A stretch of 39,545 nucleotides of DNA, taken from the UHGV virus genome UHGV-0207529; one strand, given 5' to 3'. The stretch comes from a virus. The translations under genes were made by a program, and so were the position numbers. How positions within the stretch are numbered: position 1 is the first letter of the stretch; each line of letters begins with the position of its first letter. Positions 3,466-24,419 of the stretch are shown here, piece by piece. Below the pieces are notes generated by a model. That model did no database searches, was not told the origin of the DNA, and worked only from the letters and a program-made list of their open reading frames with translations.

Positions 3466-5523
3466 ATGACAGACATTACAGCCAATGTTGTGGTAAGCAT
3501 GCCTTCGCAACTCTTCACTATGGCGCGTTCTTTTAAAGCCGTAGCTAATGGCAAAATTTATATCGGTAAAATTGACACTGACCCTGTAAATCCTGAAAAC
3601 CAGATTCAGGTTTATGTGGAAAACGAAGACTGTTCTCACGTTCCTGTTTCGCAACCAATCATCATTAACGCTGCTGGTTACCCTGTATATAACGGACAGA
3701 TTGCCAAATTCGTTACTGTACAGGGCCATTCTATGGCTGTTTATGATGCGTACGGTGTGCAGCAGTTCTATTTTCCGAATGTGCTGAAGTATGACCCGGA
3801 TCAGTTAAGACAAGAGTTAGCAACAGAGGGTAATGAAATACTTGTTGACGACTCCCGTATTGCAGTTAAAAGTGTTCATGTAAATTCAAAACTTAGAACA
3901 CAGCACAATAAAAACGCAGAAATAATCACGCCAAATGATTTTATATCAAATTATGACATGATATCTGCAGCTATTAACTCTGGAGAGAGTGCCGCAGTAT
4001 TTAATTCCAGGTATGCATTCACAATAACAGTTGGGGAATATGGTAATTTTAAATCTATTAGTGATGCTCTAAACTCAGCTGTTGCACTGCGTCCACTATG
4101 GAAAAATGGCATTGATTTTTGCATAATTAAAATTCTTTCCGGTTTTGTGCTCAATGAGCAAATAGAAATTTCAGCAGGATGTGACTTATCATGGATTAAA
4201 ATAATATCAGAAGACTCAGTGGTTTTCTCTGATACCAGTTTGTTTACTAAAACTGTTAGGACGTATTACGAATACAAATATTTATTTTACATTTGCGATG
4301 CAGCAAAAAGTCCTGTATTTGCTATTCAGATTGAAGAAAATAGAGATGATAGCGATGTTTGTGCATTTATTGTAACTCAAAAAGCTGAACTTAATTTCTA
4401 TCCGTATTCAGGTGCTCGAAAGTTCTACGTTGGAATTCATGGTAGCTTTGGTGCAAAAATTAGTGCATATCATACCGGATGTGCTCCTGATGAGGAAAGT
4501 GTTGCTGCATATATGCCAGAAGGGTATTACGTATGTGATTTTTCTTATAGCAGATACTCTTCCCTGCAACTGGTAAATAATGTCAAGGCATCAATGCCTG
4601 TAAGTAAGTTTGAACGGTGCACAGAGAGTACGGTTGCGTCAGTTAATTGTATTTATAATGTTAAAGCAGATTTTCAGGGGTCAAGTGCAAGCTATTGTTA
4701 TATAGGATGGAATGTAAGAGATGGTTCAAATGTTAATATACGCGACCATAAAACTATACATTGCTCATATCGTGGATTAACGTGCATTCATACAGCATAT
4801 GTTGATGCAAGACGACATGACGTTGAAGAAAGTGATGCAGAAACAAGTGGTAAAGTCCTTGAACCAAATATTGAAAAAGGTTTTTATGGATGTGCACTTG
4901 GTGTGCGTATTGATGGTGCGGGTTGTGTTGATGTTGCTGGTAATGATATGCGCAATTGTGGAACAGCCGTTAATGCAGACACTGGTGCTGTTATTTCCGG
5001 AAAGGCTGTAGATATCTCAGGGGTTGAGCTGGGATTTGATTGCCATGCAGGAGCATCTGTTAATTTTCCAAGGCTATGGGGTACAGATATAAAAAAATTA
5101 ATGCACCTCCAAGATGGTGTAAGGTTTAACTCTAATATTTGTCATGTATTTGGTGCAAATCCCACAAAAGATATTAGATGGATTGATGTAGAGAGATCTG
5201 AAGCTTCTTTTATGAATGCAACGCTGGATGCAGATTCAGGATTTATTGCTGACTGTGGTAGTAGGATAACCATTGAAGGAAGTAAAGTTAAAAACCAAAC
5301 AATAAGAAGTTTTTTTGGATCACATGTGGCTATAAATAATACTGTTGCTGACAGAACTTATTCAGATATAGCCGATGTTCCGCAGTTGACTATTAGTGGA
5401 GGATCTTTTATTTCTGCTACAGGATATTCTAATTCTGACTCCAGCCCTCTTAGGTTGAGCACAACACGAAATACACTTGGAGTTGGAGGAGCCATATTTT
5501 CAACCAATGGGGAAGTTTCATGA
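3466..5523 (+). CDS. Tailspike: P22 gp9-type N-terminal head-binding domain with a divergent receptor-binding domain
   Basis: N-terminus [34 protein letters not shown]...VLKYDPDQ matches the P22-family tailspike head-binding domain; the remaining ~570 aa are AT-rich and not P22-like. Confidence 0.9.
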
Positions 5524-5819
5524 TTAAGAGCATTGATGTCACTCCATTTCTTCACTCGCTTTGCGCTTTTGCGGCTCAGGTACTGGTTGGTATTTTTACC
5601 GGAAACTGGGCTTACGGTGCGATAGCCGGTTGTACGTTCTTCATTGCGCGTGAACACACCCAGGCAGAATATCGCTGGATAGAAAAGTTTGGGAAAGGGA
5701 AACGTGTCAACATGCCGTGGTGGGGAGGTTTTGATCCACGCGTGTGGGATGTGGGAAGTTTGTTGGATTTTTCTTTCCCAATTATCGGATGCTTATTGGT
5801 ATGGATTCTTGCATCGTAG
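5520..5819 (+). CDS. Small hydrophobic membrane protein (moron) coupled to the tailspike gene
   Basis: 99-aa ORF overlapping the tailspike stop (ATGA); several hydrophobic segments. Confidence 0.45.
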
Positions 5820-5910
5820 CGAACACATAATTACCGATGAGACAAAACTGAGACACACAAAGCTTTGCACTGGATTGCAAGGCTTTGTGCTCTTCGGTAT
5901 TTAAGGTGGG

Positions 5911-7068
5911 TTACTCCACCTTTTCATCAAGCCAGTCCGCCCACCACTGCATCATTTCTCTGCGCTTATCGAGATACTGAGCATGGTTGTAAATACCACG
6001 CACAGATCCGCCGTTGGCATGTGCCAGTTGCACTTCAATAGCGTCAGCAGGCCATTCGTGCTCGTTCATAATCGTGCTGAATTCATGCCTGAATCCGTGA
6101 CCGCTTTCCAGACCCTCATAGCCGATTTGTTTGATCACAAGCAGTACAGCGTTCTCGCAAATTGGCTTCTTCTTATCGTTGCGCCCGGCAAAAACAAATT
6201 CTGATACTGGTTTAGTGATGGAGCTTAGCGTAGTGAGAAGTTCAACCACCTGGTCTGACATCGGGACCACATGAATTTTGCGTCCCTTCATCACACTGGC
6301 GTCGATGGTGATAATCCTGTTTTCAAAATCGACGTTCTTCCATAGCATGGAACGAAGCTCTTTCGTTCTTAGGGCTGTGTAGCGTAAAACTTTGGTCGCA
6401 ATGAGCGATACGATACTTCCTGAAAATGTTGCCAGTGCTTTGTTGAATGCAGGGATCTGGTCTGCTGGAAGAAACGGGAAGTTCTTCTTGCGGTATCCTT
6501 TCATGGCGTCTGCAAGGTCAGGTGCCGGGTTATATTTAGCCCTTCCGGTGACAATAGCGTAACGGAAAACCTCGCCGCATCTTCTGCGGGCTTTGTTGGC
6601 TCGCTCCATTGCACCGCGATCTTCAAATCTGCGGATTACTTCCAGCAGTTGCATCGGCTCAATATCCTGAATCTCAAGACCGCCGATGATAGGTAAAATG
6701 TCGTCATCAAACATTTTTGCAAGTTCAGTTGCATATCCTACTGACCAGACTTGCTTCTTGTGCTCGTACCATTCCTTGTAAATCGCACTAAAGGAATTGT
6801 TGTTAGACGAAGCCTTTTTCGCTTTTACCGGATCGATGCCAACCGAGATGTCTTTCCTCGCAGTCCATGCTTTATCCCTTGCCTCCTGCAAAGTCATAAG
6901 TGGATATTTTCCGACGGTCAGGATTTTCTCCTTACCGTCAATCTTGTAGCGAAGCTGCCATACCTTTTTCCCTGACACAGGGACATAAAGGTACAGGCCA
7001 TTACCATCGAGAAGGCGGTATGGTTTTTCTTTCGGCTTTGCTGCTTCAATCTGCTTAACGGTGAGCAT
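5911..7068 (-). CDS. int: Tyrosine integrase, P4-like
   Basis: N-terminus IEAAKPKEKPYRLLDGNGLYLYV typical of P4-type integrases; C-terminal HGFRH and catalytic Tyr region (VRGIYNHAQYL). The track ORF extends to a GTG at 7104; the ATG at 7068 (MLTVKQ) is preferred. Confidence 0.85.
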   Translation of the reverse strand: MLTVKQIEAAKPKEKPYRLLDGNGLYLYVPVSGKKVWQLRYKIDGKEKILTVGKYPLMTLQEARDKAWTARKDISVGIDPVKAKKASSNNNSFSAIYKEWYEHKKQVWSVGYATELAKMFDDDILPIIGGLEIQDIEPMQLLEVIRRFEDRGAMERANKARRRCGEVFRYAIVTGRAKYNPAPDLADAMKGYRKKNFPFLPADQIPAFNKALATFSGSIVSLIATKVLRYTALRTKELRSMLWKNVDFENRIITIDASVMKGRKIHVVPMSDQVVELLTTLSSITKPVSEFVFAGRNDKKKPICENAVLLVIKQIGYEGLESGHGFRHEFSTIMNEHEWPADAIEVQLAHANGGSVRGIYNHAQYLDKRREMMQWWADWLDEKVE

Positions 7069-7323
7069 GGGTAAAAATCCGGTGGGTAAAATTATTTTAT
7101 CCACTTTTTACCCGTCATGGAGTGCGGCTGTCAACGATCTGACGCGAACCATTACGAACTGTTAATCTACGGAAGGCTTGATATTCAGGGGATTTTGCGG
7201 ACTGGTACGGATGGGAGCGAACTGATAAATGGTGTCCCCTGCAGACATCTACTTGAGGCGGCAGGGGATTGATTGGAATGGTGTTTTTTAGATGTGAAAA
7301 ATATTTTACCCGCTATTTTACCC
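7069..7323. repeat. Integrase arm-type site candidates (TTTTACCC / GGGTAAAA 8-mers)
   Basis: Five copies: GGGTAAAA at about 7069 and 7084, TTTTACCC at about 7106, 7304 and 7316, bracketing the core at 7230-7244. Confidence 0.5.
7230..7244 (-). other. attP core matching the 3' end of tRNA-Arg (argW)
   Basis: Minus-strand CTGCAGGGGACACCA matches the acceptor stem, discriminator and CCA end of E. coli argW as I recall it; flanked by arm-type repeats. Confidence 0.55.
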
Positions 7324-7518
7324 ATTGGCGCGGCTTAAGAGCTTATTTTTGAATTCACAATGGTCACGATATAACCATCTTGCTCGACCGTGGATAACTT
7401 TGGCTTTAGGCAGGTCGCCGGACTTAATCCGGTCGTAGATGAAGGTTTTACCAAAGCCAGTATCAGCCATGATGAATTTCAAATCAACCAGTGAATCAGG
7501 TTGTAGTTCGTGTTGCAT
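7318..7518 (-). CDS. AlpA-family excisionase/regulator
   Basis: 66 aa with the AlpA-like HTH pattern (TGFGKTFIYDRIKSGDLPKA...GRARW); GGAGA SD upstream. Confidence 0.65.
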   Translation of the reverse strand: MQHELQPDSLVDLKFIMADTGFGKTFIYDRIKSGDLPKAKVIHGRARWLYRDHCEFKNKLLSRANG

Positions 7519-7564
7519 GAGTGCTATCTCCGAATAGGGAATCGAACCTGCAAATCAGGCAATA

Positions 7565-7590
7565 AAAAACCGCATTGATGCGGCGATGGT
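7565..7590 (-). terminator. Rho-independent terminator (minus strand)
   Basis: Hairpin ccgcat-tga-tgcgg with a T-run on the minus strand. Confidence 0.45.
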
Positions 7591-7638
7591 AGATCTGGAT
7601 ATCTTGAGAAATGAACAGGCCTCATCGAGTGTGAGGCG

Positions 7639-7983
7639 TTAGTCCTTGCGTAGCTCGCTGATTCTTCTGTAAGTCTCTGGTGCTTTGTTCCCGTACGCCT
7701 TCATTTCAGACTTCAACAGGGCAACGAGTGAATCCCATTCGTTGAGGATTCCTTTGAATGCCGGAACGCGCTTTGCAACCTTGTCGAATGAATCTCTGAT
7801 TTCTGGAATCTGCTCAACAAGTGCAACGCATCGTCTGAAATCGGCTGCGTCATGTGGAGCACCGAAGCTATGACCATAGATATTCTTTTTCAGTCCACAT
7901 GCGATTGAGGCAAGAGTTGCGCTACTGATGCCAACATCGCCAGTCGATTGCCATTTCAAAACCTTCATAGCCAAATCTGACAT
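7639..7983 (-). CDS. Hypothetical early-left protein
   Basis: Internal ATG (MSDLAMKVL) with GGAGA SD within track ORF 7639..8010. Confidence 0.5.
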   Translation of the reverse strand: MSDLAMKVLKWQSTGDVGISSATLASIACGLKKNIYGHSFGAPHDAADFRRCVALVEQIPEIRDSFDKVAKRVPAFKGILNEWDSLVALLKSEMKAYGNKAPETYRRISELRKD

Positions 7984-8083
7984 TTCTTGTCTCCAATAAA
8001 AAACCGCCATCAGGCGGCTTGGTGTTCTTTCAGTTCTTCAATTCGAATATTGGTTACATTGTTTTCATATATGAATAAATAAA

Positions 8084-23201: not shown

Positions 23202-23525
23202 ATGAAGATGCCAGAAAAACATGACCTGTTAGCCGCCATTCTCGCGGCAAAGGAACAAGGCATCGGGGCAATCCTTGCGTTTGCAATGGCGTACCTTCGC
23301 GGCAGATATAATGGCGGTGCGTTTACAAAAACAGTAATCGACGCAACGATGTGCGCCATTATCGCCTGGTTCATTCGTGACCTTCTCGACTTCGCCGGAC
23401 TAAGTAGCAATCTCGCTTATATAACGAGCGTGTTCATCGGCTACATCGGTACTGACTCGATTGGTTCGCTTATCAAACGCTTCGCTGCTAAAAAAGCCGG
23501 AGTAGAAGATGGTGGAAATCAATAA
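23202..23525 (+). CDS. S: Holin S (class I, dual-start)
   Basis: 107 aa; [34 protein letters not shown]... matches lambda S, including the Met1/Met3 dual start. Confidence 0.95.
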
Positions 23526-23985
23526 TCAACGTAAGGCGTTCCTCGATATGCTGGCGTGGTCGGAGGGAACTGATAACGGACGGCAGAAAACCAGAAATCA
23601 TGGTTATGACGTCATTGTAGGCGGAGAGCTATTCACTGATTACTCTGATCACCCTCGCAAACTTGTCACGCTAAACCCAAAACTCAAATCAACAGCCGCC
23701 GGGCGTTACCAGCTTCTTTCCCGTTGGTGGGATGCCTATCGTAAGCAGCTTGGACTGAAAGACTTCTCTCCGAAAAGCCAGGACGCTGTGGCACTGCAGC
23801 AGATTAAAGAGCGTGGCGCTTTACCGATGATTGATCGCGGTGATATTCGTCAGGCAATTGACCGTTGCAGCAATATCTGGGCTTCACTTCCGGGCGCTGG
23901 TTATGGTCAGTTCGAGCATAAGGCTGACAGCCTGATTGCAAAATTCAAAGAAGCTGGCGGAACGGTCAGAGAGATTGAGGTATGA
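23509..23985 (+). CDS. R: Endolysin R (lytic transglycosylase)
   Basis: 158 aa; [35 protein letters not shown] matches lambda R. Confidence 0.95.
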
Positions 23986-24419
23986 GCAGAGTAACCGCGA
24001 TCATCTCCGCTCTGGTTATCTGCATCATCGTCTGCCTGTCATGGGCGGTTAATCATTACCGTGATAACGCCATGACCTATAAAGGCCAGCGAGATAAAGC
24101 CACATCCATCATCGCTGATATGCAGAAGCGTCAACGTGATGTAGCAGAACTCGACGCCAGATACACAAAGGAGCTTGCTGATGCTAACGCGACTATCGAA
24201 AGTCTCCGTGCTGATGTTTCTGCTGGGCGTAAGCGGCTGCAAGTCGCCGCCACCTGTGCAAAGTCAACGACCGGAGCCAGCAGCATGGGCGATGGAGAAA
24301 GCCCAAGACTTACAGCAGATGCTGAACTCAATTATTACCGTCTCAGAAGTGGAATCGACAGGATAACCGCGCAGGTTAACTACCTGCAGGAATACATCAG
24401 GACGCAATGCCTGAAATAA
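23982..24419 (+). CDS. Rz: Rz i-spanin
   Basis: N-terminal transmembrane segment followed by coiled coil; directly after R. Confidence 0.85.
24175..24366 (+). CDS. Rz1: Rz1 o-spanin lipoprotein, embedded in the +1 frame of Rz
   Basis: Lipobox LLGVSGC followed by a proline-rich segment; entirely inside Rz. Confidence 0.6.

Follow-up and report, generated by a model that had tools for sequence, protein, structure and literature searches.

What does a small membrane-protein gene do that is found, well conserved, directly behind receptor-binding genes that are themselves unrelated to each other? The question is raised by UHGV-0207529, a P22-like (Lederbergvirus) genome of 39,545 nucleotides whose whole length is referred to below as the window. 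Between its tailspike gene and the convergent integrase gene, int, lies an ATG-started open reading frame of 99 codons at positions 5520-5819 of the plus strand, which we call ORF99. An earlier note on this DNA had regarded ORF99 as a membrane-protein moron and had suggested a compact lysogenic-conversion or exclusion function. Here we find that the linkage of the ORF99 family to genes of receptor-binding proteins (RBPs) is established across phage morphotypes, and that the homologue is independent of the type of RBP that precedes it. By analogy with known RBP-linked proteins, the answer that we prefer is a serotype-independent role at the envelope, in exclusion or receptor masking; we assign it a probability of roughly 30%.

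ORF99 matches the hidden Markov model (HMM) of phrog_1443 with residues 5-98 on profile positions 1-94 of 97 (E 9.1e-54). This is a PHROGs family without assigned function, and only families of unknown function occur among the PHROG matches of ORF99. The annotations of its members, in thousands of Escherichia coli genomes and in phages 21, JEP4, Gally and mEp460, go no further than 'hypothetical protein' or 'putative membrane protein'; ORF99 is an ordinary member, with nothing different in kind. A word-indexed search of 5.8 billion proteins returned 424 relatives, and when 1.84 billion cluster representatives were scanned in full with HMMER, 438 clusters at 50% identity fell in the family (E <= 0.001). 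The best 150 of these 438 representatives are mostly 90-140 amino acids (aa) long, with a mode at 95-99 aa, and no fusions were found among them. ORF99, with 99 aa, has the usual length and carries all invariant and near-invariant residues. The earlier note had asked whether ORF99 might be a fragment of a larger disrupted gene; this was checked here and ruled out, because about 95-100 aa is the full length of proteins in this family.

Comparison of the copies points to selection on the protein. Among E. coli copies the ratio of nonsynonymous to synonymous substitution rates (dN/dS) is 0.16-0.17, and in distant copies the invariant residues are spelled by freely varying synonymous codons. When dN was calculated by region, the loop between helices 2 and 3 gave 0.22, versus 0.7-0.85 in the membrane helices. 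The loop motif, which includes MPWWGGFD..W, hardly changes between E. coli and Sphingomonas, the invariance of this stretch being complete down to about 50% identity; the residues that persist to about 30% identity are H12, R44, E45, Q48, E50, W76 and P87, and D83 in the third transmembrane (TM) helix is also conserved. ORF99 is a real, intact gene under strong purifying selection, not a chance reading frame.

Searches beyond PHROGs gave little. ORF99 had no match in Pfam at E<=1, nothing in NCBIfam beyond a chance match to MlaA (E 0.15), and no family in PADLOC-DB at E<=10; for 48 distant family members Pfam returned scattered weak single matches only. The relatives are all called 'hypothetical' in their sources, apart from the name 'Ybl63' in UniRef. 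Literature searches with the motif strings, WP_000355360, phrog_1443 and 'Ybl63' found no relevant paper. The family is unstudied and unrelated to any characterised example, and we found no description of its constancy behind varied RBPs.

The genomic context of the family was surveyed in 131 retrieved loci (cited by L numbers where they have to be told apart). In phage contexts the homologue immediately follows the distal receptor-binding gene, in many cases with an overlap, and this placement was found in P22-like, lambda-like and P2/HP1-like phages, in phages carrying a diversity-generating retroelement (DGR) and in jumbo lytic phages. The P22-like prophages (23 loci) have six unrelated tailspike receptor domains upstream (tailspikes of 663, 685, 707/712, 799, 861 and 883 aa). 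The gap from tailspike to homologue ranges from -4 to 240 bp, and the homologues share 78-100% protein identity. Behind the varied tailspikes the homologue, a spacer of about 98 bp and int (88-100% identity) form a constant block. Escherichia phages HZ41 (99.8%) and JEP4 (98.7%), which match the window over this stretch, both encode an identical ORF99 protein; a prophage copy is present in E. coli FORC_082.

Lambda-like carriers include phage 21, mEp460, many 'Lambda_ev' isolates, the Rac prophage of E. coli B and E. ruysiae. Their gene order is J, a side tail fibre with a PF08400 N-terminus and a LamG-like C-terminus, the 92-aa protein p92 (phrog_1361), often a second fibre (phrog_4563), and then the homologue, which is followed by the prophage end or by cargo such as sitABCD. 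In phage 21 (L003, 5386-8835) and in L008 this iron/manganese transporter operon stands immediately downstream of the homologue on the opposite strand; sitABCD is a common cargo of infant-gut lambda phages (PMC6969025). A similar order is seen in prophages of Comamonas, Pantoea and Chelativorans and in a metagenomic phage, where a fibre (phrog_5939) homologous to the lambdoid LamG-type C-domain is followed by a p92-like protein (phrog_18574) and the homologue. The p92 proteins (phrog_1361/phrog_18574) are a small, function-less family located between the LamG-type fibre and the homologue (phage 21, L003, 4710-4988; L016, 5435-6001; L143, 4475-4999) in E. coli lambdoid, Comamonas and metagenomic phages, and p92 is absent from the window.

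In P2/HP1-like prophages of Leclercia and Aeromonas the homologue abuts a Phage_tail_fib/Peptidase_S74 fibre gene, or overlaps it by 4 nt, and is followed by further tail genes. Other prophages have it behind an S74 fibre, an SGNH-esterase tailspike or a pectate-lyase-like spike, with junctions of -8, +9 and -13 nt, and gp37-like, P2-type and Mtd-like RBPs are further upstream types in the family. In Comamonas nitrativorans and Pigmentiphaga the homologue is located inside a DGR (L034 and L036, 4839-8057), between the mtd-like variable target gene (phrog_2889) and the genes for bAvd and reverse transcriptase. Lytic phages also carry it: the jumbo Aeromonas phage ACP1, where it is flanked by two fibre-like genes; Aeromonas phage 4_4512, within a P22-type structural module; and phage 62AhydR11PP, close to the start of the genome in a group of small genes. 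That lytic phages have it inside structural clusters suggests a function in the lytic cycle. The fixed place behind unrelated RBPs, together with the near-constant loop, points to a common requirement tied to host recognition or to late infection.

The same survey bears on the idea that ORF99 serves lysogenic conversion. As proposed in the earlier note, the gene would be a compact conversion factor that alters lipopolysaccharide (LPS), O-antigen or other undecaprenyl-linked glycans of the lysogen; it could be a very small enzyme, or an inhibitor of host Wzy, WaaL or the undecaprenyl-phosphate (Und-P) cycle. P22 carries gtrABC at the corresponding position between tailspike and int. That relatives hold O-antigen genes in this slot was borne out by phage vB_EcoP-611R6 (611R6 for short; L005, 2408-4291), in which the tailspike gene is directly followed by a gene for an OafA-type O-acetylase, then by a 114-bp 'tail fiber protein' remnant and the ORF99 homologue. 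Since 611R6 has both the acetylase and the homologue, the two are not alternatives, and the fibre remnant suggests that the 611R6 homologue came from a fibre-bearing (lambdoid) phage. The upstream RBPs are mostly glycan-directed (tailspikes, LamG, SGNH esterase, pectate lyase, S74), and a cluster of conserved H, E, D and W residues at one face of the membrane might be a binding site for a sugar-pyrophosphate or a metal. In Gally-type relatives the homologue is preceded, in moron-like fashion, by a terminator (ACCACCTCCATTGGAGGTGGT and a T-rich tail) and then by an AT-rich spacer with a promoter-like site, so that in some phages it may be expressed independently. Small phage proteins that shift O-antigen patterns exist: Gnarl1-3, from lytic and temperate phages, are neither glycosyl- nor acetyltransferases and have been proposed to act in exclusion or debris masking (PMC12373910); D3 Iap and the epsilon15 polymerase inhibitors are also cited in that paper.

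However, the homologue does not depend on the type of tailspike, nor therefore on that of the O-antigen, it is found in lytic phages inside structural gene clusters, and it is mostly operonic with late genes, leaving no room for a promoter. It is also present in genomes of the Sphingomonas group; Sphingomonas is generally held to lack classical LPS. ORF99 shares the slot of gtrABC and Oac/OafA but, as the earlier note had also remarked, is with its 99 aa too small for a Gtr or Oac enzyme. Pfam found in it neither a GtrA domain (PF04138; about 120 aa, 4 TM helices) at E<=1 nor the acyltransferase-3 domain of Oac/OafA (~330 aa or more, ~10 TM helices), and between tailspike and int there is no ORF for a GtrB or GtrC partner. 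The Gnarl proteins resemble ORF99 in their small size; they are soluble, whereas ORF99 is membrane-bound. Homology to Gnarl1 (KpV79), Gnarl2 (Mup07) and Gnarl3 (Mangalitsa) was rejected, as the ORF99 family HMM gave them bit scores of -0.9 to -2.0. With the same gene behind at least six unrelated P22-type tailspike domains and behind other RBP types, lytic phages included, a serotype-specific modification of the O-antigen by ORF99 appears unlikely because the homologue is indifferent to tailspike type. We consider a conversion factor of any kind unlikely, and an exclusion or receptor-masking role, for which Cor and Llp provide the analogy, plausible.

The reading that we prefer depends on how the protein sits in the membrane. 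Hydropathy analysis of ORF99 indicated three hydrophobic stretches, and an AlphaFold2 model based on a 36-sequence alignment (mean predicted local distance difference test, pLDDT, 92.6) has three helices (residues 8-27, 30-57 and 78-98), the last two joined by an ordered loop (58-77), in line with the small polytopic membrane protein that had been predicted. A search for structural relatives of the model found no informative one. On the DNA, the parts of the protein correspond to:

5541-5648, plus strand: helical hairpin of TM1 (aa 8-27) and TM2 (aa 30-43), which holds the near-invariant His12
5649-5756, plus strand: invariant polar loop (aa 44-79), in which R44, E45, Q48, E50 and W76 are invariant or near-invariant family-wide
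5757-5813, plus strand: TM3 (aa 80-98), in which D83 and P87 are conserved; a single residue follows it

Averaged over 314 family members, the conserved loop contains 5.6 K+R and 4.5 D+E. The composition of variable segments is usually a guide to which side is cytoplasmic. In chromosomal relatives the C-terminal tails are rich in Arg (e.g. ...SRAGRTRQSRRRR), and these proteins have a basic turn between helices 1 and 2, and because of this basic first loop and these tails we regard an orientation with the N-terminus outside and the C-terminus inside (N-out/C-in), which would put the invariant loop at the periplasmic face, as the somewhat likelier one. H12, R44-E50 and D83 are at the same membrane surface as the loop, whichever the orientation.

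Our preferred reading, a serotype-independent role in exclusion or receptor masking, would work as follows. ORF99 would be translated by coupling, late in the lytic cycle and together with the tailspike, and would insert in the inner membrane as three helices in the N-out/C-in orientation. The invariant loop, rich in His, Arg, Glu and Trp, would then engage, at the periplasmic face, an envelope component that is conserved across Proteobacteria, and its action would turn the infected or lysogenic cell, and the cell debris, into a poor target for phage attachment or DNA entry. In this scheme we infer the topology, when the protein is made, and its activity in exclusion or receptor masking. ORF99 would thus be an inner-membrane, serotype-independent counterpart of the RBP-linked exclusion proteins Cor and Llp. 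The llp gene of T5 and the cor genes of T1, phi80, N15 and HK022 are genes for small envelope proteins that adjoin receptor-binding genes; their products, lipoproteins of the outer membrane with specificity for FhuA, block this receptor in infected or lysogenic cells. ORF99 resembles them in being a small envelope-protein gene next to an RBP gene, in its occurrence in both temperate and lytic phages, and in the proposed benefit, which is the exclusion of kin phages and the protection of progeny from debris. It differs from them in being a three-helix inner-membrane protein that is not tied to one receptor type, and it has no sequence relation to them in any library searched. The possibility that ORF99 is itself a Cor/Llp-like lipoprotein was rejected: its H-S-L-C15 misfits the lipobox [LVI][ASTVI][GAS]C, with Leu at position -1. 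Cys15 is not conserved, and distant members have Ile.

Several observations weigh against this role. ORF99 has no homology to exclusion, defence or conversion proteins in PADLOC, Pfam, NCBIfam or PHROGs. The charge counts leave the topology ambiguous, since the loop itself is rich in K+R. We know of no inner-membrane entry factor common to podo-, sipho- and myoviruses, which makes a generic target speculative. Finally, copies of the gene in bacterial chromosomes suggest a cellular function outside phage conflict. Such copies, in settings unlike a prophage, adjoin pirin in Aeromonas, occupy one fixed locus in five Leclercia genomes, and follow ligA or pnp in the Sphingomonas group and other alphaproteobacteria. 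If a serotype-independent block of attachment or entry is nevertheless what ORF99 provides, it would bear on host range, on prophage-mediated resistance and on phage therapy in wild E. coli, a species in which the homologue is present in 1828 of 5426 complete genomes (median two copies, maximum seven). A gene that roughly one complete E. coli genome in three carries, and that occurs in phages of at least four architectures, is without a name, a Pfam family or a paper that we could find.

A broader version of the same idea, which we hold tentatively, is that the gene is a universal companion of host-recognition modules in podo-, sipho-, myo- and jumbo phages, co-expressed with any RBP and acting on one conserved envelope component. 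The target would be, for example, the glycan-carrier cycle of undecaprenyl phosphate or the site of DNA entry, and the outcome would be masking or exclusion independent of receptor type, or the sensing of superinfection. The family would then represent a new functional class rather than a further serotype-converting enzyme.

The main rival to the exclusion reading is a function in lysis timing. According to this explanation, which we regard as doubtful, ORF99 is a holin-like or antiholin-like late membrane protein that tunes the firing of the holin or senses the periplasm at superinfection. With about 100 aa, three TM helices, a probable N-out/C-in orientation and, presumably, late expression, ORF99 resembles class I holins such as lambda S105 and P22 gp13, and its relatives sometimes adjoin lysis genes. 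In at least four independent lineages the homologue comes after the last tail-fibre gene, and the genes of the lysis cassette follow next: it is ahead of an Rz-like spanin in Comamonas (L016), of a hydrophobic ORF with 132 aa and a GH108 endolysin in Pantoea (L035), directly of Phage_holin_3_3, a muramidase and DUF2514 in a metagenomic phage (L140), and of GH108 in L143. The holin genes T4 t and T7 17.5 likewise come after tail-fibre genes, and one distant family member weakly matches Phage_holin_8 (E 0.004).

Against lysis timing, the window has a full lysis cassette elsewhere, at 23202-24419, with a holin (phrog_126), an endolysin (phrog_90) and a spanin (phrog_13), so that ORF99 is away from the endolysin, and ORF99 matches no holin family in PHROGs or Pfam. 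A profile comparison with the phage's own holin by hhalign gave a probability of 0.6%, on which homology between the two was rejected. Unlike class I holins, ORF99 has no hydrophilic charged tail, since it ends one residue past TM3, and E. coli members in general end 0-3 residues past it; the long invariant loop, 36 residues, is atypical of holins. In L140 a separate holin follows the homologue, and the chromosomal copies have no lysis genes with them. If the lysis-timing explanation were true, the family would be a new class of holin or antiholin.

Chromosomal copies in several genera that do not look like prophages also enter into a different explanation, namely that ORF99 is a general housekeeping membrane protein, kept next to RBP genes mainly as a homology arm for the exchange of RBP cassettes and with little phage-specific function. 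In the P22-like phages the mosaic junction is exactly at the 5' end of ORF99, in front of the constant block of ORF, spacer and int. Part of the gene is, moreover, nearly identical in DNA between P22-like and lambda-like E. coli phages:

5592-5684, plus strand: near-identical DNA patch of about 90 nt, ORF99 codons 25-55, synonymous sites included

Outside codons 25-55, ORF99 differs by 15-25% between these two groups of phages. A hidden RNA or DNA element in the patch was rejected, as distant homologues vary freely at its synonymous sites, and for this reason we take the pattern as a probable result of recent common descent or of recombination among E. coli phages rather than a constraint on the family as a whole; the patch might mark the right edge of an exchangeable RBP cassette as a hotspot of recombination or a homology arm. 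As the whole explanation of the gene, a homology arm is nonetheless quite unlikely: the phage copies are under strong purifying selection (dN/dS about 0.17), intact copies are retained in lytic phages with compact genomes, and the position behind the RBP gene is kept at 30-50% identity, which is too divergent for homologous recombination.

The start of ORF99 carries a trace of the junction. The usual family start, ATG-GAT-ATA, reads ATT-GAT-GTC in the window, JEP4 and HZ41 (ATT being codon 5). The start is supplied there by a new ATG, four codons earlier, which creates the ATGA overlap with the tailspike TGA. This shifted start, shared by HZ41 and JEP4, is the sole local peculiarity in comparison with phrog_1443 members; among the IMG/VR prophages it also occurs in eight, all with the 685-aa tailspike, and is absent behind the other five tailspike types. 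The coupling of ORF99 to this tailspike thus arose secondarily, from the recombination by which the two were joined.

The position directly downstream of RBP genes, often with translational coupling, is also where fibre chaperones usually sit, and the homologue co-travels with p92 (phrog_1361/18574) in the same slot. ORF99 could on these grounds be a membrane-located helper for the maturation, localisation or attachment of the tail fibre or tailspike. We find this very improbable: fibre chaperones co-vary with the fibre tip, whereas the homologue is constant behind unrelated tips, and a polytopic membrane protein is unlikely as a chaperone for cytoplasmic assembly. P22, Sf6 and HK620 are not among the 60 listed of the 67 phage records with a match, and, to our knowledge, P22-type tailspikes fold without such a helper factor.

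In the exclusion reading, ORF99 of the window would be expressed late with the tailspike. The features of the locus that bear on this are:

3466-5523, plus strand: tailspike gene, 685 aa, with a P22-type head-binding N-terminal domain and a low-GC receptor-binding domain
5509-5515, plus strand: Shine-Dalgarno-like GGGGAAG within the tailspike coding sequence, 4 nt ahead of the ORF99 ATG
5520-5819, plus strand: ORF99, three-helix membrane protein of 99 aa, family phrog_1443
5856-5889, no strand assigned: hairpin of 14 bp between the two convergent genes, kept in JEP4, Gally and 611R6; it may be a bidirectional terminator
5904-5921, no strand assigned: second hairpin, of 7 bp, which overlaps the stop codon of int
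5911-7104, minus strand: tyrosine integrase gene (PF00589, PF22022, PF13356), convergent with ORF99

Residues 1-113 of the tailspike are the P22 head-binding domain (PF09008, E 1e-65), and the protein also matches phrog_5662. The tailspike stop codon TGA (5521-5523) shares bases with the ATG of ORF99 (5520-5522), giving ATGA at 5520-5523; the 99-aa frame beginning on this overlap and ending before the convergent int, as the earlier note had described it, was confirmed from the sequence and the ORF coordinates, and the overlap supports translational coupling to the tailspike gene. The end of ORF99 is 91 bp from int, and the interval between tailspike and int in the window contains no ORF besides ORF99. 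The spacer region 5815-5925 folds with z = -6.2 relative to shuffled sequences, and both hairpins are probably terminators for the ORF99 and int transcripts. No promoter-like site was found in the window within 200 bp upstream of ORF99 (5300-5520 scanned).

Strong hairpins lie downstream of ORF99, and in the Gally-type relatives a terminator and a promoter-like spacer lie upstream of the homologue. For the window itself the label of moron, in its strict sense, is doubtful: since there is no upstream promoter-like site, the start overlaps the tailspike stop and the GC content of ORF99 (47.0%) is that of the phage (46.7% for the window), ORF99 looks like the last cistron of the late operon rather than an autonomous moron. 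Its position behind the RBP gene favours late expression together with the RBP, and in the window the ATGA overlap, the lack of an upstream promoter-like site and the presence of hairpins only downstream argue for the same timing.

A few minor features of the region were also recorded. ARAGORN found no tRNA gene in 5000-8000, and for this reason attP may be on the other side of int (7105-7317), as the layout of the 611R6 prophage suggests. A search of 5200-7400 against Rfam gave only a sub-threshold match to the Hfq-binding small RNA isrK at 6506-6596 (plus strand) inside int (19.9 bits versus a gathering score of 50, E 0.19), which is most likely due to chance. A GTG-started antisense ORF of 99 codons (5358-5657, minus strand) runs across the end of the tailspike gene and the first half of ORF99; it is known from the mechanical ORF list alone and nothing marks it as a gene. 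The C-terminal domain of the tailspike (3826-5523) has a GC content of 37%, compared with 42.5% for the head-binding domain and the window average given above, and this low value suggests that the receptor-binding domain is a recent import.

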